Notes under the pieces: generated by a model | Seen by the model: the letters and a program-made list of their open reading frames with translations, nothing else | Told to the model about the DNA's origin: nothing | The model's database searches: none | Translations under genes and position numbers: made by a program | Source: Promethearchaeota archaeon | GTDB taxonomy: Archaea; Asgardarchaeota; Lokiarchaeia; Sigyniarchaeales; SOKP01 | Length of the DNA stretch: 41,633 nt | Direction: 5' to 3' | NCBI GenBank assembly: GCA_048940925.1 | Contig: JBHLOC010000038.1 | Span: forward strand, 4,602-46,234 | In this document: positions 10,591-38,393 of the stretch, piece by piece | How the letters are laid out: every line of letters starts with the position of its first letter | Numbering within the stretch: the first letter of the stretch is position 1

Positions 10591-12462
10591 ATGCGCTGGA
10601 GCTACGTTTTAATTGGCATAGGGGTCGGTATTATCTTAACTTCACTATTTATTTTGGAATTTATTATTTTTAATTCGATCTTTTGGAGTTTCTTAATTAC
10701 AATTGCGGTGATATTGAATTCTGCTCATATTCTTACGCATAAATTTAATTGGGAATTAGATGCTAAAAAAGTGCTTTCTATATATTTCACTCTCACCACA
10801 ACCTCGATGATTATAGAATTTGTATTGACAGGAAGTTTTCTTTGGAGCTTTTCTTTAACAGTTATTTCGCTTTTTTTTGTAGGACATTATTTAACGAAAG
10901 GATTTAATATTCTTTTCAGACAGTTTCATATAAAAGAAATATATCGGGGTTTAATCAGCTTTTATTTAACGTTTGTATACTTTTTCATACTATTTTACAT
11001 ACTTTTTCAAAGTGTTAATCAATCCTTTCTTTTAATCGAATTTACTTTTATATTTTATATATCCTTAATTTGTATGATTTTACTAACAATAAATTCTTTA
11101 ATTAGAATAGTAGCAGTTGGTTTTCATAGAAGGAAATATGAAATTTTTCCTATTAACATGATAGAATATGCTGCTTTATACTACTTAAGAAAGACAGATG
11201 ATAATCGTTTAGACTTTTTGGAATTAAAAAAGCAGATTATTGGAATTTTAAATGTTTTTACAGAAAATGTTTATTTTGACGATAAAACAGCAAAGTCCAG
11301 CATCTATTTTCTTTGCGCTCGTGGACTTGCAGATATCAAAAACAATGATGTTTATCTAAACGATCTGGGTAAACAAAAGGGAAATCTATGGGAGGAGACA
11401 TTACATAACCAAATGGGTAACTTTAATAAAATTTTAAATAGGAATAGTGTATTAATAAGATCTTTTTTAGGATTATTTATTCTAAGTCTTCTTAAAATTT
11501 TTATAGGATTTTTCAATTCAGAATCATTATTTGCAGAAGGATTCGAAAATCTACTGGATTGTATTGCAGTAATTTTAATTGTAATAGGCATCAAAATTAA
11601 AAAAGAAAAATTAGTAAACATAATCATTATCAGCTTAATGGCATTTACAGGGGGTTCAATTTTACTAAATTCAATTCAATCTTTAATTTATGGCCCTAAA
11701 CCCATTTCTAATGTAATATATATTGTGATAATTGCGCTAGTATCAATAATTTTAAATAACTACTTACGAATATTGAAAAATTTTGTAGGGAAAAAAAATA
11801 GGAACTCTTCACTAATCGCAAGTGCAATAGATTCGAAAGTTAATATTATAATATCAATCAGCATTATTGCAGGCGCCCTTTTATCAAATCTTGGAACCTC
11901 TTTAGGGATTCCTGTATTTCATTACGGGGATCCAATTATCGCAATTTTTGTATGTGTTCTCATTTTTAAAGAAGTTTTTGAAATATTTCGCGATTTAATC
12001 ACCTCAAAAGAAGAAGAAATTGAATTTGAAAAATTCCAGATGAAATATGAGAAAAATTTTGAAGAATACATAACCAAGTGGATACTCACGGTCTATTATG
12101 ATGATTTAAATCTAGAATTCACACCTGAACAATTATCAGAGTATTTTCAAAAATCTTTGAAGCAAGGTGAAGAGGTTTACACTGAGTTTGCTTACTTTGG
12201 TTTATATATTTTTAAAGAAAAAGGTATAATCCCAGTAATAAATGACTTACTTAATGAGAAACTCTTATCCTTATCAGAAAACGGATTTCTCAACTTAACC
12301 AAAAGAGGTGGATATTTTTTTGAACATCTCTATTCCAAAGAATTACTGACCGATCTCAAAGATCCTTTTGATTTCTTTTTTGAACAACAAATTAGTTTTG
12401 ATAGTATTCAATCCAGAAAGCTTGAAATAATCGAAAATTTCCAACTAATTGAAAATAAATGA
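10591..12462 (+). CDS. Cation diffusion facilitator (CDF)-like transporter with extra N-terminal TM bundle and two winged-helix-like domains
   Basis: CDF signatures NSESLFAEGFENLLD (TM2), NSSLIASAIDSKVN (TM5), YGDPIIAI (TM6). wHTH-like segments end in YFLCARGLADIKNNDVYLNDLG and DLLNEKLLSLSENGFLNLTKRG. Confidence 0.72.
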   Translation: MRWSYVLIGIGVGIILTSLFILEFIIFNSIFWSFLITIAVILNSAHILTHKFNWELDAKKVLSIYFTLTTTSMIIEFVLTGSFLWSFSLTVISLFFVGHYLTKGFNILFRQFHIKEIYRGLISFYLTFVYFFILFYILFQSVNQSFLLIEFTFIFYISLICMILLTINSLIRIVAVGFHRRKYEIFPINMIEYAALYYLRKTDDNRLDFLELKKQIIGILNVFTENVYFDDKTAKSSIYFLCARGLADIKNNDVYLNDLGKQKGNLWEETLHNQMGNFNKILNRNSVLIRSFLGLFILSLLKIFIGFFNSESLFAEGFENLLDCIAVILIVIGIKIKKEKLVNIIIISLMAFTGGSILLNSIQSLIYGPKPISNVIYIVIIALVSIILNNYLRILKNFVGKKNRNSSLIASAIDSKVNIIISISIIAGALLSNLGTSLGIPVFHYGDPIIAIFVCVLIFKEVFEIFRDLITSKEEEIEFEKFQMKYEKNFEEYITKWILTVYYDDLNLEFTPEQLSEYFQKSLKQGEEVYTEFAYFGLYIFKEKGIIPVINDLLNEKLLSLSENGFLNLTKRGGYFFEHLYSKELLTDLKDPFDFFFEQQISFDSIQSRKLEIIENFQLIENK

Positions 12463-16698: not shown

Positions 16699-16813
16699 GA
16701 ATAGTCTATAGGAAAAATATTTTTTTATGTTCAAAAATCACTTAAATTTTAATAAAACTATTTAGTTCTTTAGTAATAGAGCATATTTTTATAAAAATTT
16801 TTAGAGGTAAATA

Positions 16814-19800
16814 TTGTTGAGATTTTTAGTTTTAAGTCATCGTAACCCCATTATTCCTCCATATATCTATTTAAAGATGCCAGAAATGATTCAAAGAGAT
16901 GATATTGAACAAATCCCTTTATTGATCGATCTCTATGAAGACGGTTTTTTTAAACATACGTTTGGAAATTTTAAAACAGCCAATTTAATCTTTGAGATTC
17001 CCAGTGAATATTCAAAAACAAAAATTGAGCGTCTTTTAATTTCATTAGTTATTGACAGTAAATCTGAAATAAACACTGCTTTAGCTCAGGAATTTTTAGA
17101 GAGGTTGGTTGAAGATTTCAAAAAAATCGAAGATGTGTTCAAGGCTTTTTATATAAGCTCTGAAATTTATAAAGGAGATCCTTCAAAACTAGAGGAAATT
17201 AGAGTACTTCTAAATACTTATAACATTTCTTTTCCAGAAGAGGAAGTCATCTTTGAACAAAAAGAAGCAAAAATCTTAATTTTTGGGCTTTCAATGGCGG
17301 GGAAAACAACTATAATTCGAACGAGAAGAAAATCAGTTTCAAAAGCAATATTTCCAACTATAAATGTAGATGTTTCTAGAATTTTAGTTAATAATGTATC
17401 TTTATTGACTTATGATATCCCGGGAAAATATAATGTTAAGGAACTATGGAAACCATATCTAAAAAACCAAGATGGATTGATATTCGTGTTAGATGTTACG
17501 GATAAAATAAAATTCCCATATGCTCGTGAGTTACTTCATGAAATTGCGGGAAAACCAGAGTTAAGTGAATTACCACTTCTTATCCTTTTTAATAAGATTG
17601 ATTTAAAACAACCAGATATAAAAGATCTAGAAGATTCTATGGAACTGAAGAAATTTGAAAAGAGACCAGTAAAATCATTTTTAACAAGTGGAATTAAAAA
17701 TATAAATATTGATGAGGCATTTAACTGGCTTTCCATTAAAATTGCAGAGAGAGTAGATCAATTTACTCCAAGAAGCGAAGTTGGGATAATTCTATGTCGA
17801 TGGGATGAAAACCTTGGTGTTAAAGTCGAAGCAGTATATCCTAATGAAGCTTTTGAAAATCCAGAATTAATATCTATTAAGAGTTTTTCAATATCGCAAT
17901 TTGTTTTGAAAGGTGATGAATTTAAACCAACGTCAGTAATCCTTCCATTTCCTCACCTAAATTCAAATGCTGCAATCTATTTTGACTTTATTGAAAATGA
18001 GAGTATTAGAGGTGGTTTATTACCCTTATCATTAATTATTTATTACAGTGAAAAAATTCCAAAAAATATCATTAACCAATTTAGTTCATTCATTATTAAG
18101 CAATTTAATGATATAAAAAAGAATTATCTCGACAAAAATCTAGTAGAAGATATTCTTCACTCTATTCATAGTACAATAATTAATCAGATAACTTTATTTC
18201 AGCCTTCAATTGAAGCACTAAAATTAGCTGAATTACGGTATGAGGCTTTATTTAAAGCTGCTCGTGATGCTATTCTAATTATTGATAAAACATCAGGAAT
18301 AATAATAGATGTGAATAAAAAAGCGGAGGAGTTATTTCAACGACCATTTGAGGATTTTATTGGTTTACATTCAAGTCAGGTATTAAGTGGTATTATTGAT
18401 ATAGATTTTAATGAAGCTATATTTGATCCCCTTGATTATCCCTTTCCTTTAAGATTAGAGGTTATTGATAATTCTGGTAATCTTATTCCGGTTGAAATTA
18501 GTGTAAGCGAAATTCAGATGGGGGGGCAAATCTTTGCCCAATATATTATTCGAGATATTACTATGAGAATAGAAGCAGAAATTAAATTAAAACATTCTGA
18601 AATAAAATATCGTCACCTCTTCCAAGATTCACCTTTTTCCATTCTTTTAATTAATCCTAAAGGTTTTTTAGTCGATATTAATCCCGCTTTAGAAAAAACT
18701 TTAGGATATAAAAGAGAGGAATTAATAGGAAAAAGATTTGTAGATCTTTCGCTAATCCATCAAGATTATATAGTGGAAGTTCTAAAAAGATTTAAAAAAG
18801 AAGAAAGAGGTAAAATTTTTCCTTCAATAGAAATTCAACTTTATCAGAAAAATGGTAACCTCATTTGGGTAAATATGCAATCATCTTTAGTTGATATTGG
18901 TGAAGATACATTTTACCAAATAATTTGTCAGAATATAACAGACCAGAAAAAAATAGAACAGGAATTAAAGAAAATATCAAGATTAAAAGCTATTATTACC
19001 GAAATAGTATCAAGATTTGTTGGAGTAAAAGATTTTACTGACGCAATCATTCTTTCACTTCGAGATATTGGTGAATTTGTTCATGCGACAGGAGCTTATC
19101 TTTACATTTTTAATAATATTTACGATTTCACAAAAAGAAATTATGTATGGTATAGTAAGTTGATGTATCCCAAAATTGGTTTGCCTAAAAACATAGTAAT
19201 TAATGATTTTCCATGGGTAATTGAGAAATTAAAACATTCTGATTATTTTTACATTAAAAATGTAAATAATCTTCCTGAACACGCAGTAAAATTGAAAAAT
19301 TTTCTTAAAATTCATACAGTTAAAAATCTTTTAACATTTTCAGTAAAAATTGATGGAAACTTAGAAGGATTAGTTTGTTTTGATAATATTACAGAGGAGG
19401 ATTATTGGATCGAAGAAAATCTAGAATTATTAAGCATTATTTCAGACATCCTTAATAACGTGATACTCCGTAAAATAGCTGAAGAGAATTTACGTCTAAG
19501 TAAAGAAACTATTCATCAAGAATTTGATAGAGAGTATTTTTATAAGGAGTTATTTGTAAATGATATAAATACTATAATAAAGAACATTCAATCCCTATTA
19601 GACGAATGTATTGAAGAAGATAATCAACTTATATTAGAATCTAGAAGTGAACTATTAGACTCTATTAAAGATCAATGTATAAACGGTAAACTTTTAATAC
19701 ACATAATAAGAAGGTTGACCCTGCTTAATGAAGCAAAAATAATTATTGAACCAGTAAATTTAATTAATGTAATGCAGAATGTTATAGAATTTGTTACAAA

Positions 19801-20188
19801 TAATTATTCTAATAAAAAAATTGATATAATAGTTGATCATCCCAATGAGGCTCTATATGTAAAAGCTGATAAGTTTCTAATAGATATTTTTGTCAATATC
19901 ATTATTAGTTCAATTAGATATAATAAAAACCCCAGAATAGAGATCAAAATCATTATCTCTAAAGGTCAAAAAGAGAACCAAAATTATATAAAAGTAAAAT
20001 TTATTGATTATCAGAAAGAAATTTTAAACATCGATAAAGAAATGATATTCAATAAAGAAAGAGAAAAAGATGATAAGATCAAAGAAATAATTTTAGGGTT
20101 TCTTTTGGTAGAGCGAGTTTTAAATAATTATAGCGGAAAAATATGGGTTGAAGGAGATTCTTTTGTAATTTTATTACCTGAAGCTTAA
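16814..20188 (+). CDS. Multidomain signalling protein: longin-like / Arf-family GTPase / longin(uDENN)-like / PAS / PAS / GAF / degenerate HisKA-HATPase
   Basis: G1 GLSMAGKTT, G2 PTI, G3 DIPG, LWKPY, G4 NKID, G5 TSG, EAFNWL. PAS starts RYEALFKAARDAILIID and KYRHLFQDSPFSILLIN. GAF ends EENLELLSIISDIL. Kinase-like tail ends GKIWVEGDSFVILLP. TTG start after GAGGT. Confidence 0.85.
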   Translation: MLRFLVLSHRNPIIPPYIYLKMPEMIQRDDIEQIPLLIDLYEDGFFKHTFGNFKTANLIFEIPSEYSKTKIERLLISLVIDSKSEINTALAQEFLERLVEDFKKIEDVFKAFYISSEIYKGDPSKLEEIRVLLNTYNISFPEEEVIFEQKEAKILIFGLSMAGKTTIIRTRRKSVSKAIFPTINVDVSRILVNNVSLLTYDIPGKYNVKELWKPYLKNQDGLIFVLDVTDKIKFPYARELLHEIAGKPELSELPLLILFNKIDLKQPDIKDLEDSMELKKFEKRPVKSFLTSGIKNINIDEAFNWLSIKIAERVDQFTPRSEVGIILCRWDENLGVKVEAVYPNEAFENPELISIKSFSISQFVLKGDEFKPTSVILPFPHLNSNAAIYFDFIENESIRGGLLPLSLIIYYSEKIPKNIINQFSSFIIKQFNDIKKNYLDKNLVEDILHSIHSTIINQITLFQPSIEALKLAELRYEALFKAARDAILIIDKTSGIIIDVNKKAEELFQRPFEDFIGLHSSQVLSGIIDIDFNEAIFDPLDYPFPLRLEVIDNSGNLIPVEISVSEIQMGGQIFAQYIIRDITMRIEAEIKLKHSEIKYRHLFQDSPFSILLINPKGFLVDINPALEKTLGYKREELIGKRFVDLSLIHQDYIVEVLKRFKKEERGKIFPSIEIQLYQKNGNLIWVNMQSSLVDIGEDTFYQIICQNITDQKKIEQELKKISRLKAIITEIVSRFVGVKDFTDAIILSLRDIGEFVHATGAYLYIFNNIYDFTKRNYVWYSKLMYPKIGLPKNIVINDFPWVIEKLKHSDYFYIKNVNNLPEHAVKLKNFLKIHTVKNLLTFSVKIDGNLEGLVCFDNITEEDYWIEENLELLSIISDILNNVILRKIAEENLRLSKETIHQEFDREYFYKELFVNDINTIIKNIQSLLDECIEEDNQLILESRSELLDSIKDQCINGKLLIHIIRRLTLLNEAKIIIEPVNLINVMQNVIEFVTNNYSNKKIDIIVDHPNEALYVKADKFLIDIFVNIIISSIRYNKNPRIEIKIIISKGQKENQNYIKVKFIDYQKEILNIDKEMIFNKEREKDDKIKEIILGFLLVERVLNNYSGKIWVEGDSFVILLPEA

Positions 20189-20427: not shown

Positions 20428-21102
20428 ATGAATGAATTGAGTCTTGAAGATATAAAAGAGAATATAAATCAACGAAACGTATATCAACAATCGAAAGAAA
20501 AAAGTAAGAGATTAGCGGGAATTATTGTACCTCCACTTTTGATGCTGACTATGTTTCTTATTTATACCTTATTCGGCATAATTTTTGGAAATGAGCTTGG
20601 TTGGTATTTGGGATTGTTTGTGTATTGGATATTATGTGGACTTTTGTTTTCAGCGTGGCTTATTGGATTTGATAAGATTAAAGAATTGAGTACCCCTAAA
20701 AGATTGAAACTGAAATTAGTTCCTTTAATTATATTTCCTGTAGTAATGGCATTTACTTTTAGGGTCTTATCAGGAACAGAATATAACAAAACAAGTATTT
20801 GGGTTGTAATATTACTTGTGATAACCGCGTTTGGAAATGGAATCTTTGAAGAGATATTATGGCGGGGAACTTATATGGTATTATATCCAAATAATAATTT
20901 CATAAGAATTATCTATTCCACCATTTGGTATGCGTTGTTTCACTTTGCATCCGGAAGTCTCTCTTCAAATTCTAATACATTGGGTTTAGTTATTGGATCG
21001 GCATTTTTTGGAATATACCTAGCTTCTTTAGCTAAATGGACCAATACAATTTGGTGGAGCATTCTTTGTCATATCTTAGGGGGATTTGTCTTAGTTGTAT
21101 GA
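20428..21102 (+). CDS. CPBP (CAAX protease/Abi) family intramembrane glutamic endopeptidase
   Basis: FEEILWRG, WYALFH, ILCH motifs within a multi-TM protein. Confidence 0.88.
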   Translation: MNELSLEDIKENINQRNVYQQSKEKSKRLAGIIVPPLLMLTMFLIYTLFGIIFGNELGWYLGLFVYWILCGLLFSAWLIGFDKIKELSTPKRLKLKLVPLIIFPVVMAFTFRVLSGTEYNKTSIWVVILLVITAFGNGIFEEILWRGTYMVLYPNNNFIRIIYSTIWYALFHFASGSLSSNSNTLGLVIGSAFFGIYLASLAKWTNTIWWSILCHILGGFVLVV

Positions 21103-34783: not shown

Positions 34784-35275
34784 ATGGAATTTATGGTAAA
34801 ATTCAATATATCAACAATTATTAACCAAAATCCAGAAATTGTATGGAAAGCTTTTATAGATCCACAGAATATGATACATTGGACACGATTTTTAGAAAAG
34901 GTGGAAATTATCAAGGGGAAATTAGGAGAAATAGGAGCAATTTCTCATTTACATTACTTAGAGAAAGGTCGTTCCTATATCTTAGAAGATAAGTTACTTT
35001 CTTATGAGGAAGGGAAGAGAATAGAATCTCAGGTCTCTGGACAGGGGTTGAATATTATTGTTGAAACGATTTTAGAATCACATCCGAAGGGAACAAAAAT
35101 TTCGATGACGTGGAATGGAACAAGTAAATCCTTTTTTACCAGGATTATCCTAAAATTAATGCAAGGTAAAATTAGCAAAAATGCAAAGTCTGAATTAGAT
35201 ACTTTTAAAAGTTTGGTTGAGAAATACGGAGTTAGTTTCTCTGATCATGATTTAGGTCGGAAATTAATTCCCTAA
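34784..35275 (+). CDS. SRPBCC (START/polyketide cyclase) family protein
   Basis: INQNPEIVWKAFIDPQNMIHW...GTKISMT...ELDTFKSLVE pattern. Confidence 0.82.
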   Translation: MEFMVKFNISTIINQNPEIVWKAFIDPQNMIHWTRFLEKVEIIKGKLGEIGAISHLHYLEKGRSYILEDKLLSYEEGKRIESQVSGQGLNIIVETILESHPKGTKISMTWNGTSKSFFTRIILKLMQGKISKNAKSELDTFKSLVEKYGVSFSDHDLGRKLIP

Positions 35276-38200
35276 TCTCTTCTACACGTTCAGTATTACC
35301 CATCCCTCGATATGTATTCATTAAATATTCCAAATTTTTCAAATCTTTAGGATCTAATTCTAAAGCTTTTTTGTAATAAATTTCAGATTTAGCATAACTG
35401 CCTGCGTTATAATATAATCCTGCAAGATTTTGAAGTGCGTCCTTATCTTTTGGGTTTAATAAAAGCATTCTTTTAAGTATCCATTCTCCTTTGACTGTTT
35501 GTCTTGTGTTAAAATAAATGCGTGCAAGCATGTTTAAAGTGTATTTATCGTTTATATCCAACTCTAATAGGCTCTTAAAGATTTCCTCTGCTTTTTCATA
35601 ATGTTGTTGATTTAAATAAATAAATCCAAGATTAGAATATGGTTTAAGATACTTTTGGTTAAGGTTTAGAGACTCTTGCCAATATTCATTTGCTTTTTTA
35701 AAATCATTCTTATAATAATAAATCGTCCCAAGGATGTTTAATACAGGGAGAAAGTTAGGCTTAATTTCTAAAACTCTTCTGGCATACTCTTCCGCATTTT
35801 GAAAGTCCTTCATTCTTAAATGAGAAAAAGCAAGAAGGTATAAAATCAAATAATTACCAGTAGATTCAAATTTTTTCAGTAAATTTAAAGCTTGATCAAA
35901 TTCTGGTTTATTTATTAAACATAAAGCTTTTCCCGCAGTGGCATTCACTGAACCGGGATTAATAGCTAATGCTTTTTCAAAGTAAATTAATGCTTCCTCA
36001 AATCTTTTTAAAAATGCTAGTAGAAAACCTTTAGCATTTAATATTGGTTCTTCTTCATTTTTCATTTGAAGTAATTCTAAAATTTTTTCTAAATAGGGTT
36101 TTCCTTTTTCTTTTTCCCACTGATATCCTTCTAATAGATATGGATTTTCATTAACATTTTTTACAAGATCCTCCAATTTTATTTCATTTAATAGCATTTG
36201 AATTTGAGGTAATCTAAATTCTCTCCAATTCTTGAAGATTTCTTCTAAATCTGCCACACTGTTTAGTTTTTGTTTTAACTGAGCAAGACCATAGTTAAAA
36301 TCCTGAACTTCTGGAGTCGATCCAAATCCCCCTTGAGTTGCGAGATCTATCGCTTCTTCAAGTGTTTCAATAGCTTTTGTGATTCTTCCTTGATTATAAT
36401 ATACCATGGCAATATCATTGTATGTACCTGCGATACCTCCTAAATCATCAACTTTTTCATAATAATCAAGAGCTTCTTCATAGTTCCTCAGAGCATTTTG
36501 ATAATCACCAATGTCTTTAGAGAAATTACCCGCTTTTTTAAGATCGAATAAGACCCGATTCATATCATTCAACATTTTATCTATTGGTAAAGCTTTTTCT
36601 AATAATTTTACTGCTTTATCTTTAGAATTAAGTTCACTATGTAATAAAGCCATGTTCGTTAAATAAATAGCTTTTTTTGCGAGATCTCCCAATATTTCTA
36701 CCTTTTCTAATGCCTTTTCATAATTTGCTAATGCTAACTTCTTTTTCCCTTGTTGCGCATAAATTGATGCAATATTGTTTAAGCGCACCGTTATGCCATT
36801 TAAATCTCCTAGTTCTTCAGAAATTTGAAGAGCTTCTTGAAATTTCTCCAATGCGTTTTCATACTCGTTTTTAGAAAAATATACGGAACCGATATTACTA
36901 AGAAGACGCGATTTAACACCTAGATCTCCTAAATCTTTATTTATTTCTAATGCTTTTTGATAATACTCAAATGCTTCTTGGTATTTCCTGTCTGAGAAGT
37001 AAGTTAGACCAATATTATTTAGAATTGTGATTTTTTCTATAATAATTGGAGAATTTTCTGCAATTGCAAGAGCCTTTTTTAGCCACACTATTGCTTCTTG
37101 ATACTTTCTTTGAGACTTAAATACCATACCAATGTTATTAAGGGTCATAGAACTGCCTTCAAGCGCTCCAAGATCTAACGCTCTTTCATAACACTCTAAT
37201 GCTTTTTCAGGATCTCCTTTATCTAGATATATTAGGCCATTATTGTTAAGAAATGATGATTCTACATCGACATTTCCTAGTTCTTTCGCTAAACTCAATC
37301 CCATTTCTCCTATCCTCAGAGCATTATCAGGTTGTGCTAATCTATAATACAATTCCCAAGTAAATAATAACTTTCTAATCTCATCAATCGGGTGTAAAAC
37401 TTTCTGAAACCAATTTTCATAATCGAATTCAATTAAAGAGGTTTTAGCAAAATTAGGTTGACGTTTTTCATTTAATAATAGTTTCCAAAGGAAATCTCTG
37501 ACAAAAATGGCTGTATTTACATTAATTTTAAATATTTTAATCGGATGGTCAAGATGGATTGAAATCTGTCCTAATTCTCTTAAAAGTGAAGTGATTCTAT
37601 CTGTATTTCCTGCATTATTCTCAGAAACTGCTTCAATCCTAAAAATCTCTGGAACTTCAGCAGATGTATGGTCCACCCAAATAATTTTAGAAATATTTTG
37701 TAATTCTTTCAAGGTAGGACTTATATCGAAATCATCATTGCCTGAATATCCCATTACAAATAGAGTTCTACCCTCTAACAAGTTAACCAACGCTGGCTTC
37801 TTGTAATCTTCAATCGCAAAAGTCTTTTCATCTCGATCCCTTCCTAAAGCCGATATCGTGGTTACTAAAGTATCTCTCGTATCCTCATTAGTTATAATAT
37901 TTTTTTTTGATCCATGTATTTTGTAAATCGGAAATCTACCTTCTTTTGCCAGAATATCTGGATCAGCATAATTCATGAAATCTATACGAGTAATTATTGG
38001 TAAAATTTTTGATTTATCTTCAATGATATTTATTAAAGCAAATTCTATAAGATAATCAAAATTAGTAGTAATTACGTGGTGTCCCTTTATAACGCTATGT
38101 GCTAATAAATAATGGAGTATATTTGGCTGAGTGTAATTATCAAAAAAATCCATTATCCTTAATTTTGGATCAAAATGCTTTTGAATAAATTCTACAACTG

Positions 38201-38393
38201 TTTCATATCTTAATCCTTGTAAGGATAAGATTTTACTGATTTCCTTATCTGTAGCACACAATTTCACGAGAGTGTTGACAATTTGAACTGCTGATTTGAG
38301 ACCTGAAGGTGGCTCCATTGAAATCCCAGCACCAACTAGAAATGTGAATTTCTCATTCGGAAGGATAATTTCTTCTAATTCGTGGAAAATCAT
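35232..38393 (-). CDS. SIR2-like (SIR2_2) domain protein with two TPR arrays
   Basis: FLVGAGIS, ITTNFD, YKIHGS, MGYSGNDDFDI. Then ~40-aa LxNIGxxY...ALxI repeats and C-terminal 34-aa TPRs (ALxLDP-type). Confidence 0.9.
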   Translation of the reverse strand: MIFHELEEIILPNEKFTFLVGAGISMEPPSGLKSAVQIVNTLVKLCATDKEISKILSLQGLRYETVVEFIQKHFDPKLRIMDFFDNYTQPNILHYLLAHSVIKGHHVITTNFDYLIEFALINIIEDKSKILPIITRIDFMNYADPDILAKEGRFPIYKIHGSKKNIITNEDTRDTLVTTISALGRDRDEKTFAIEDYKKPALVNLLEGRTLFVMGYSGNDDFDISPTLKELQNISKIIWVDHTSAEVPEIFRIEAVSENNAGNTDRITSLLRELGQISIHLDHPIKIFKINVNTAIFVRDFLWKLLLNEKRQPNFAKTSLIEFDYENWFQKVLHPIDEIRKLLFTWELYYRLAQPDNALRIGEMGLSLAKELGNVDVESSFLNNNGLIYLDKGDPEKALECYERALDLGALEGSSMTLNNIGMVFKSQRKYQEAIVWLKKALAIAENSPIIIEKITILNNIGLTYFSDRKYQEAFEYYQKALEINKDLGDLGVKSRLLSNIGSVYFSKNEYENALEKFQEALQISEELGDLNGITVRLNNIASIYAQQGKKKLALANYEKALEKVEILGDLAKKAIYLTNMALLHSELNSKDKAVKLLEKALPIDKMLNDMNRVLFDLKKAGNFSKDIGDYQNALRNYEEALDYYEKVDDLGGIAGTYNDIAMVYYNQGRITKAIETLEEAIDLATQGGFGSTPEVQDFNYGLAQLKQKLNSVADLEEIFKNWREFRLPQIQMLLNEIKLEDLVKNVNENPYLLEGYQWEKEKGKPYLEKILELLQMKNEEEPILNAKGFLLAFLKRFEEALIYFEKALAINPGSVNATAGKALCLINKPEFDQALNLLKKFESTGNYLILYLLAFSHLRMKDFQNAEEYARRVLEIKPNFLPVLNILGTIYYYKNDFKKANEYWQESLNLNQKYLKPYSNLGFIYLNQQHYEKAEEIFKSLLELDINDKYTLNMLARIYFNTRQTVKGEWILKRMLLLNPKDKDALQNLAGLYYNAGSYAKSEIYYKKALELDPKDLKNLEYLMNTYRGMGNTERVEEIRELISDLNHDQRN

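Follow-up and report, generated by a model that had tools for sequence, protein, structure and literature searches.

A Lokiarchaeia-type protein joining an Arf-like GTPase, two longin domains, PAS-GAF sensors and a degenerate histidine-kinase core in a single chain

Asgard archaea encode many small GTPases, longins and roadblocks, which raises the question of which regulator is paired with which GTPase and which signals control them. A gene at positions 16814..20188 (+) of a 41,633-nucleotide stretch of the Promethearchaeota archaeon contig JBHLOC010000038.1 (assembly GCA_048940925.1; the whole stretch is called the window below) poses this question within one open reading frame (ORF). What would a cell do with a protein in which an Arf-like G domain, ligand-sensing domains and the remains of a histidine kinase (HK) are translated together? 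A previous interpretation made from the letters alone (the sequence-only reading) described a cytoplasmic protein whose single chain unites a G domain of Arf type with a PAS pair, a GAF domain and a kinase-like scaffold. Our analysis supports this description, and all of the named domains stand; what the list omitted are two longin domains of FLCN/NPRL2 type that flank the G domain and that are the most informative parts for mechanism. From its N to its C terminus, the complete chain thus reads Longin - Arf-like G domain - Longin - helical linker - PAS - PAS - GAF - DHp - CA, with all features encoded on the + strand. We consider it probable, with moderate confidence, that the protein is a sensor-controlled GTPase switch in which the pseudo-kinase serves as a dimerization or docking scaffold.

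A conserved gene of one Lokiarchaeia-type family

The frame at 16814..20188 is single and uninterrupted, as the sequence-only reading had it, and consists of 1123 or 1124 codons plus stop. Translation likely starts at TTG 16817 (or TTG 16814) rather than at ATG 16877, because strand beta1 of the N-terminal longin occupies aa 3-10 in an AlphaFold2 (AF2) model of aa 1-147, because residues upstream of Met22 are conserved in orthologues (whose frames open M/L-R-[IF]-L-x-L-S-H), and because a Shine-Dalgarno-like GAGGT (16804..16808, +), a putative ribosome-binding element judging from its sequence, lies 5-8 nt upstream of the TTG-TTG pair. Many deposited orthologues (P0004, P0005, P0008 and others; 1103 aa) are 20 residues short and begin at the internal Met22. 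Since such a start would remove beta1-beta2 of the N-terminal longin, the 1103-aa annotation is suspect, and these database entries are probably start-codon miscalls at the TTG start. A transmembrane segment, whose absence had been noted before, was likewise not found by us: the top 19-aa Kyte-Doolittle mean is 1.48 and located in the N-box helix of the kinase core.

A protein search returned 189 proteins, and the best 120 of these 189 included 78 full-length orthologues (1079-1131 aa, 39-82% identity) with the same domain order. They derive from NCBI, JGI, ENA and Logan assemblies, represent Promethearchaeota/Lokiarchaeia-type metagenome-assembled genomes, and carry the source labels 'PAS domain S-box protein' or 'ADP-ribosylation factor-like protein'. 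Of 400 genomes sampled from the phylum, about 45, all belonging to the source's own family, contain an ORF of 1123-1153 aa that spans aa 2-472. In this sample, the long sensor-bearing forms are confined to that one Lokiarchaeia-type family, shorter Longin-G-Longin forms occur in one genome of a neighboring family, and the lineages commonly regarded as nearest to eukaryotes yielded no sensor-bearing form. The protein is Asgard-specific.

The sequence-only reading had allowed for a chimeric join at the domain junctions; orthologues, family ORFs and independent contigs agree in speaking against one. All domain junctions are spanned by contigs from three independent studies (sediment and mangrove runs), without supported joints in X2 or X3 and with single-contig 'skip' joints of 90-95% likeness in X6 and X11. 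Moreover, the ratio of nonsynonymous to synonymous substitution rates (dN/dS), computed pairwise over 14 orthologues and giving rough values as synonymous sites are near saturation, was below 0.45 in every segment. It was lowest in the G domain (0.08), reached 0.14 in CA, the middle longin and PAS1, 0.29 in DHp and 0.31 in GAF, and was highest in the linker (0.40). Together, the orthologues, the ~45 genomes, the junction-tiling contigs and the dN/dS values rule out a chimeric assembly or a pseudogene: the gene is real, supported well beyond chance, and conserved in one Asgard (Lokiarchaeia-type) family.

An Arf-like G domain between two longins

The G domain (aa 148-311; 17255..17746, +) is matched by the Pfam Arf profile (PF00025) over aa 148-308 with E 1.4e-34 and 119.6 bits (cut-off 22.3), other small-GTPase profiles reaching 41.7 (Ras) and 26.2 bits (Roc). 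Its best PDB matches, none stronger than E 2e-22, are Arf1, Arl8 and Sar1, and within its own 4.8-Mb genome it has the highest score of 98 matches to the Arf hidden Markov model (HMM). A search among proteins of 92-294 aa brought up fragments of the same family only and, at this sensitivity, no closely related stand-alone GTPase. An assignment to Rag/Gtr finds no footing: the protein has no Gtr1_RagA (PF04670) match in Pfam at E up to 1, the C-terminal neighbor of the G domain has longin topology, where Rag/Gtr proteins carry a roadblock dimerization domain, and the RagA-like protein of the same genome has no detectable similarity to the G domain (BLASTP E 1.3). Some relatives give weak PF04670 matches (E 1e-6 to 1e-10).

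Conservation of the motifs was counted in columns of the 78 full-length orthologues, with 24 GAF-less relatives as the comparison set. The G1 P-loop GLSMAGKT (aa 158-165; 17285..17308, +) keeps G158, G163 and K164 in 78/78, and the G4 motif NKID (aa 260-263; 17591..17602, +), which confers guanine specificity, keeps N260 and K261 in 78/78 and D263 in 73/78. The G1 consensus GxxxxGK[TS], switch-I Thr182, D201, P203, G204 and Trp212 are invariant among the orthologues. With the residues of G1, switch I, G3 and G4 conserved, all nucleotide-binding motifs are intact, which argues for binding of guanine nucleotide as far as motifs can tell.

The G3/switch II motif DIPGK (aa 201-205; 17414..17428, +) departs from Arf. 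Alignment with Arf1 pairs DVGGQ with DIPGK, so that the motif reads Y-D-I-P-G-K, not w-D-x-G-G-Q, and K205 stands at the position of Arf1 Q71. Across the orthologues this column holds K in 45, Q in 26, Y in four and H in three; Q is found in 24/24 GAF-less relatives, and K is limited to the crown clade that holds the studied protein. Moreover, Vargova et al. 2024 regard an amphipathic helix at the N terminus, toggling in step with the interswitch, as the defining feature of the Arf family. A free N-terminal helix is absent here, as the sequence-only reading had remarked, and its place ahead of the G domain is taken by a longin domain of 147 aa. The earlier placement in the Arf family therefore stands as regards the Pfam and PDB sequence matches and falls as regards the amphipathic helix and the catalytic Gln; because the helix is replaced by a longin and the Gln is Lys, 'Arf-like' is the safer term.

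The two flanking domains, the N-terminal longin (aa 2-147; 16817..17254, +) and the middle longin (aa 312-440; 17747..18133, +), were resolved only by structure prediction, as PDB profile searches and Pfam gave nothing significant for aa 1-147 and aa 312-472. AF2 models them with the topologies b-b-a-b-b-b-a-a-a (pLDDT 94.4) and b-b-a-b-b-b-a-a (pLDDT 84 for the model of aa 312-472), respectively. In Foldseek searches, the N-terminal longin is led by the longin subunits of GATOR1/SEAC (E 3e-4); the middle one matches the Lokiarchaeota longin 8yqg first (E 1e-4), followed by NPRL2/3 of GATOR1, Lst4 and FLCN/FNIP. VIA-align gave Z scores for the N-terminal domain of 13.3 (8yqg_B), 13.1 (FLCN GTPase-activating protein [GAP] complex) and 12.2-12.8 (GATOR1), and for the middle domain of 15.8, 12.8 and 12.1 at best, 10.9 for C9orf72-SMCR8, 8.5-10 for SNARE longins and ~8.3 for roadblocks. 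Both domains thus have the longin fold (VIA Z 12-16 against the Loki longin, Lst4, FLCN/FNIP and GATOR1), and both score the longins of FLCN, FNIP, NPRL and SMCR8-C9orf72 (Z 10-13) over SNARE longins and roadblocks. Despite this common fold, there is no detectable sequence relationship between the two (hhalign profile-profile comparison, probability 2%).

Which of the two might act on the G domain? GAP-type longins (FLCN, NPRL2, SMCR8 and C9orf72) have in common that strand beta2 opens with a G-P motif, next to which the arginine finger lies, and C9orf72 requires W33-D34, five residues ahead of its G38-P39 (PMC12290439). The beta1-beta2 turn of the middle longin reads W330-D331-E-N-L-G335 (17801..17818, +) and has the spacing of C9orf72 W33-D34..G38-P39 (as in PMC12290439), with V, I or L trailing G335 instead of the P of the G-P motif. 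The turn is nearly invariant: W330 is kept in 77/78 orthologues and D331, the E and G335 in 78/78, while the GAF-less relatives have W and G in 24/24 and D in 23/24. So is the sequence R399-G400-G401 (18008..18016, +) in the beta4-beta5 loop (77/78, 77/78 and 74/78, respectively; all three in 24/24 GAF-less relatives). Going by the topology of the longin sheet only, the W-D..G turn and the R-G-G loop would lie on the same edge. R399 is hence put forward as a candidate in-cis arginine finger, which may be equivalent to the fingers of FLCN, NPRL2 and SMCR8. The N-terminal longin, in turn, has P15-P16 where GAF-less relatives have G-P (22/22), and K68 where they have R-G (R 24/24, G 22/24). The protein thus appears, from these residues, to combine one intact candidate catalytic longin (the middle one) with one degenerate longin (the N-terminal one), a pairing that recalls the catalytic and non-catalytic pairs of eukaryotic complexes.

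Sensors, a decayed kinase and the wider family

A long helical linker (aa 441-474; 18134..18235, +), which AF2 models as one helix over model residues 130-160, runs from the middle longin into PAS1. The PAS pair, the GAF domain and the kinase-like tail called in the sequence-only reading were all borne out by Pfam/NCBIfam matches and orthologue profiles. PAS1 (aa 475-590; 18236..18583, +) is matched by Pfam PAS_8, PAS_9 and Diguanyl_cycl_sensor, and PAS2 (aa 591-715; 18584..18958, +) by PAS_9 (608-710) and TIGR00229 (594-718). PAS profile matches span aa 475-570 and 598-710 (TIGR00229 E 3e-37) and exceed the curated cut-offs (PAS_9 95.9 bits, TIGR00229 127 bits). The GAF domain (aa 716-890; 18959..19483, +) is weak in the single sequence (E 0.019, below the Pfam cut-off) and is assigned from orthologues: their profile matches the cyanobacteriochrome GAF 6bhn (E 8e-5), and Pfam GAF is found in 19/30 of them at E values down to 3e-10. 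Chromophore attachment through cysteines of the bilin or LOV type was considered and rejected, given that PAS1 is without Cys and that PAS2 and GAF have a single one each (C705 and C855, the latter ~60% conserved).

The C-terminal region comprises a DHp-like helical hairpin (aa 891-985; 19484..19768, +) and a degenerate, HATPase_c-like CA domain (aa 986-1124; 19769..20185, +). In the single sequence, HATPase_c is matched at E 1.2e-4, below the Pfam cut-off, and a PDB search yields chance-level matches only (TetR, FtsA). The orthologue profile, however, matches HK853 (2c2a, 3dge, 4jas) with E 2e-12 over DHp and CA, and also reaches RetS (6dk7) with E 0.017. What has been lost is seen against four canonical HKs from the source genome, which share 34-37% identity with the protein across the entire DHp-CA. 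In the H-box, their F-Y-K-D-L-F-A-H-D (DLFAHDIN) corresponds to F-Y-K-E-L-F-V-N-D (ELFVNDIN), with Asn916 (19559-19561) replacing the phospho-acceptor His; in the N-box, N-I-L-I-N-A/G corresponds to N-I-I-I-S-S (NIIISSIRY), Ser1032 taking the place of the second Asn. The kinase G1 box F-I-D-N-G-I-G-I has become F-I-D-Y-Q-K-E-I (D-YQKE), the G2 box G-M-G-L-G-L has become E-I-I-L-G-F (EIILGF), and a 9-aa loop present in the four paralogues ahead of the last CA strand is missing. HK853 has the same N, G1 and G2 boxes as the paralogues (N..NA/NG, DNGIG and GMGLGL).

This decay is not uniform. Column 916 holds N in 60 orthologues, H in eight, Q in four, S in three, K in two and T in one. The eight orthologues that keep His are all deep-branching, and a few retain the N-box Asn or part of the kinase G1 box. 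At least eight changes of the His column, to N, Q, S, T and K, are needed on a FastTree tree built from 102 sequences, the rooting of which is uncertain. The core is thus homologous to real histidine kinases and, by its sequence, catalytically dead, yet it is still under purifying selection (CA 0.14, DHp 0.29). As for the 'kinase-like' tail of the sequence-only reading, the scaffold is confirmed, and the wording is to be amended: the tail is a copy, demonstrably degenerate, of the HK family that this genome itself encodes. Because the kinase core is without catalytic residues, the protein probably signals through its GTPase rather than by phosphotransfer.

The wider family makes the same point from another side. 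With aa 1-472 as query and E 1e-30 as the limit, an exhaustive HMMER search gave 59 representative clusters. About 25 clusters contain the full Longin-G-Longin triad in proteins of 473-2317 aa, and about 40 are Longin-G proteins of roughly 305-335 aa; stand-alone triads of ~475-500 aa also exist. We scanned the domains of ten longer triad proteins. PAS directly follows the triad in nine of them, at around aa 470-490, whereas HATPase_c is matched at E 1e-4 in only two and goes unmatched at this threshold in seven; six of the seven are Longin-G-Longin-PAS(1-4) proteins without a kinase match. The five of ~700-740 aa are too short for a kinase core. The conserved unit is therefore Longin-G-Longin-PAS, with a kinase that is optional (intact, degenerate or absent), and since nearly all relatives keep this unit while the kinase varies, the conserved coupling is that of sensor to GTPase. 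That the kinase decayed or was lost again and again in the family suggests that output moved from phosphotransfer to the GTPase. The FastTree tree did not recover the GAF-less forms as monophyletic.

The family also has giant members: P0128 (2317 aa), P0121 (1772 aa) and P0134 (1383 aa) consist of a Longin-G-Longin head followed by 4-7 PAS domains, with GAF matches in P0128 and P0121 and with HATPase_c in P0128, none being seen in P0121 or P0134. As to small GTPases at large, the 98 Arf-HMM matches of the source genome (E up to 1e-5, all small-GTPase types included) lie in many cases in ORFs of 300-700 aa, so that fused GTPases are common in this genome.

An apparently split counterpart of the fused system is encoded in the source genome. 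On contig C45 (locus L023:2376-6047), a 552-aa Longin-PAS-GAF-PAS protein without a kinase is homologous to the N-terminal longin plus PAS1 of the studied protein, its longin being 35% identical to aa 2-135. The gene stands tail to tail with genes for a 349-aa Arf-like and a 304-aa Gtr1/RagA-like GTPase, and many other members of the genus likewise have ORFs of ~555 aa that share this longin.

A proposed switch, its rivals and its counterparts

How might these parts work together? According to the reading we favor, the protein would be soluble and probably dimeric, with Longin - Arf-like GTPase - Longin - PAS as its working core. The G domain, whose motifs predict guanine-nucleotide binding, would be held between the two FLCN/NPRL2-class longins, where R399, in the R-G-G loop beside the W-D..G turn, could act as a GAP-type finger or as a clamp for one nucleotide state, either in cis or across the dimer. 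Small-molecule or redox signals arriving at PAS1, PAS2 and GAF would be relayed by the long helical linker to the longin pair and change its hold on the G domain, thereby setting the GTP/GDP state of that domain and its choice of partners. The kinase core, derived from a real kinase and devoid of acceptor His and ATP boxes, would have been retained as a dimerization or docking scaffold, not as an enzyme. What is observed are the architecture, the conserved motifs, the degenerate kinase, purifying selection and the spread of variants; that the G domain binds nucleotide, that R399 has the role given, that signals flow in this direction, that the protein dimerizes and that sensing is coupled to the GTP switch is inferred.

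Several observations weigh against this scheme. K205 occupies the place of the catalytic Gln, so that a GAP-stimulated cycle may not operate in the subclade and the switch could be slow or locked. The N-terminal domains of sensor kinases are normally inputs, and the G module could accordingly be an input, not an output. The gene neighborhood varies between orthologues, and no partner or effector was identified. Finally, the middle longin has G-V/I rather than the G-P characteristic of GAP longins (PMC12290439).

The question of input versus output is at the heart of the alternative that survives best, namely that the pseudo-kinase is itself the output: it would dock a response regulator or heterodimerize with an active related HK, and the nucleotide state of Longin-G-Longin would tune this interaction together with the PAS/GAF ligands, in a manner resembling DivL or RetS-GacS. 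We regard this as unlikely, albeit deserving serious weight. Purifying selection on a catalytically dead DHp and CA would be accounted for, as would the match of the C-terminal profile to RetS; possible partners abound, given that many HKs of the genome are 31-37% identical over the entire DHp-CA, and a G module placed as an upstream element agrees both with the usual order of sensor kinases and with the deeper relatives, which keep the His and probably are, or were, real kinases. Against it stand the many relatives that keep Longin-G-Longin-PAS without a kinase core, implying that the module functions independently of the kinase, as well as the repeated loss of the His and the fact that no response-regulator gene was linked in the neighborhoods examined.

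Alternatively, the G domain might be a pseudo-GTPase, with the nucleotide as a structural cofactor or as the basis of a GTP/GDP-level sensor without a hydrolytic cycle, and with the longins as non-catalytic dimerization or platform domains. We consider this improbable. The catalytic Gln is Lys in the subclade and Tyr or His in others, G3 reads D-I-P-G rather than the D-x-G-G of Arf, and the majority of longin domains are platforms or parts of guanine-nucleotide exchange factors rather than GAPs (PMC12290439). However, the near-invariance of R399-G-G and W-D..G goes beyond what a simple platform would lead one to expect, and Q205 is retained in 24/24 GAF-less relatives and 26/78 orthologues. 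Sar1, furthermore, has His at the catalytic Gln position and is nonetheless active. A still-working histidine kinase with a non-canonical acceptor or mode of nucleotide binding is very hard to credit, for although the DHp-CA fold is retained and constrained, the H, N, G1 and G2 signatures are all altered together where same-genome paralogues keep them, and the HATPase_c score stays below the Pfam cut-off.

The surroundings of the gene give few hints. Its neighbors are an FAD oxidoreductase and, directly downstream, an Rce1-like CAAX-type intramembrane protease (PF02517, E 8e-12; 20428-21102, +); the GTPase protein has no CAAX end, and the Rce1-like neighbor was not seen beside the three relatives examined. 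A 129-aa Robl_LC7 gene (L067:5166-5555, -) lies divergently 446 bp upstream of the orthologue P0025, and tblastn did not find it in 11 other orthologue loci (1.5-kb flanks) nor in the window. The GAF-less relative P0111 has a 323-aa Arf/RagA-type gene in the equivalent position (L070:4683-5654); neither of these two genes is conserved across orthologues. Elsewhere in the window, 35232-38393 (-) encodes a 1053-aa protein with SIR2_2 (aa 106-233) followed by very long TPR arrays and with no NTPase domain in Pfam, and 10591-12462 (+) encodes a 623-aa protein in which Cation_efflux covers only aa 288-470, leaving ~290 N-terminal and ~150 C-terminal residues without assignment.

Fusions of this general class have been noted before. 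Tran et al. 2024 (PMC10933270) reported Asgard GTPases fused to or between longin/roadblock domains, some with unexplained '?' domains, classed these fusions as Rag-like but near Arf, and found operons to be of no help in pairing Asgard GTPases with regulators; Zhu et al. 2025 (PMC11914678) described N-terminal longins on some Asgard Arfs. Common to those proteins and ours is an Arf-annotated small GTPase of Lokiarchaeia joined to or between longin-type domains, and both of our longins have a Lokiarchaeota longin (8yqg) as their best structural match. In our case, however, both flanks are longins and a PAS-PAS-GAF-pseudo-kinase region follows at the C terminus, PAS and kinase domains going unmentioned in those papers. 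Liu et al. 2020/2021 (bioRxiv 10.1101/2020.10.19.343400, Fig. 5c), in turn, noted frequent fusions of NPRL2-like longins with two-component domains in Asgard, and proposed that Asgard growth is regulated via two-component systems with 'eukaryotic' sensors. The union of NPRL2-type longins with prokaryotic two-component domains is shared with our protein. Theirs is a one-paragraph comparative-genomic note, here compared by its text, and that text contains no analysis of the G domain, the Arg and W-D motifs, kinase degeneracy or the Longin-G-Longin-PAS core. The earlier remark that the architecture had not been characterized therefore holds for the family, as far as the literature was searched, and not for the class, which Liu et al. 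and Tran et al. had noted. No paper describing the family was found in the literature on Asgard/Lokiarchaeota histidine kinases, PAS domains and GTPases; what is newly analyzed is this family and its features.

In the decay of its kinase, the protein resembles the pseudo-histidine kinases of the DivL and RetS type, which retain the DHp-CA fold without a usable phospho-acceptor or ATP site and dock or modulate other signaling proteins; to our knowledge, none of these has a GTPase or longin module. The nearest bacterial analogue, by analogy only, is provided by the actinobacterial conservons, composed of the HK-like CvnA, the roadblock CvnB, the DUF742 protein CvnC and the small GTPase CvnD (PMC4316618, PMC12236503). 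There, too, an HK-like sensor, a protein of the roadblock/longin superfamily and a small Ras-superfamily GTPase cooperate. Conservons, however, are four separate operon-encoded proteins with an MglA-type GTPase and a membrane-bound, autophosphorylating CvnA, and have no PAS-GAF array, whereas our protein is a single soluble chain with an Arf-like, not MglA-like, GTPase and a dead kinase, so that the two are not homologous as systems.

A conserved fusion of one Arf-like G domain, two FLCN/NPRL2-type longins and PAS/GAF sensors in one chain can serve as a 'Rosetta stone' for pairing Asgard GTPases with regulators and signals. It also offers a defined soluble construct for the proposed GAP function of Asgard longins, with its conserved Arg and W-D..G turn, and for ligand control of a GTPase. 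Its bearing on eukaryogenesis is limited, because in the 400 genomes the long forms come from a single Lokiarchaeia-type family and did not turn up in the lineages commonly ranked closest to eukaryotes.

The closest eukaryotic counterparts are the longin GAP complexes FLCN-FNIP, GATOR1 (NPRL2-NPRL3) and C9orf72-SMCR8 (PMC12290439), in which two longins likewise face an Arf- or Rag-type GTPase. The likeness extends to a conserved Arg on one longin, to a W-D..G turn with the spacing of C9orf72, and to the high rank of these complexes among the structural matches. They differ in that the archaeal protein is a single chain that includes the GTPase and has no DENN or other C-terminal parts of those complexes; its middle longin carries G-V/I rather than G-P, its N-terminal longin has neither the G-P nor the Arg of its relatives, and its GAP activity is putative. 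It is tempting, if doubtful, to see in it a single-chain archaeal prototype of FLCN/GATOR1-Rag (or C9orf72-SMCR8-Arf) logic, in which a metabolite or redox signal at PAS/GAF would directly gate an in-cis longin arginine-finger GAP on an Arf/Rag-like GTPase while, over evolution, the two-component kinase output is given up and the GTPase becomes the signaling output. If so, the protein would represent a living intermediate between prokaryotic His-Asp signaling and eukaryote-style GTPase nutrient signaling.

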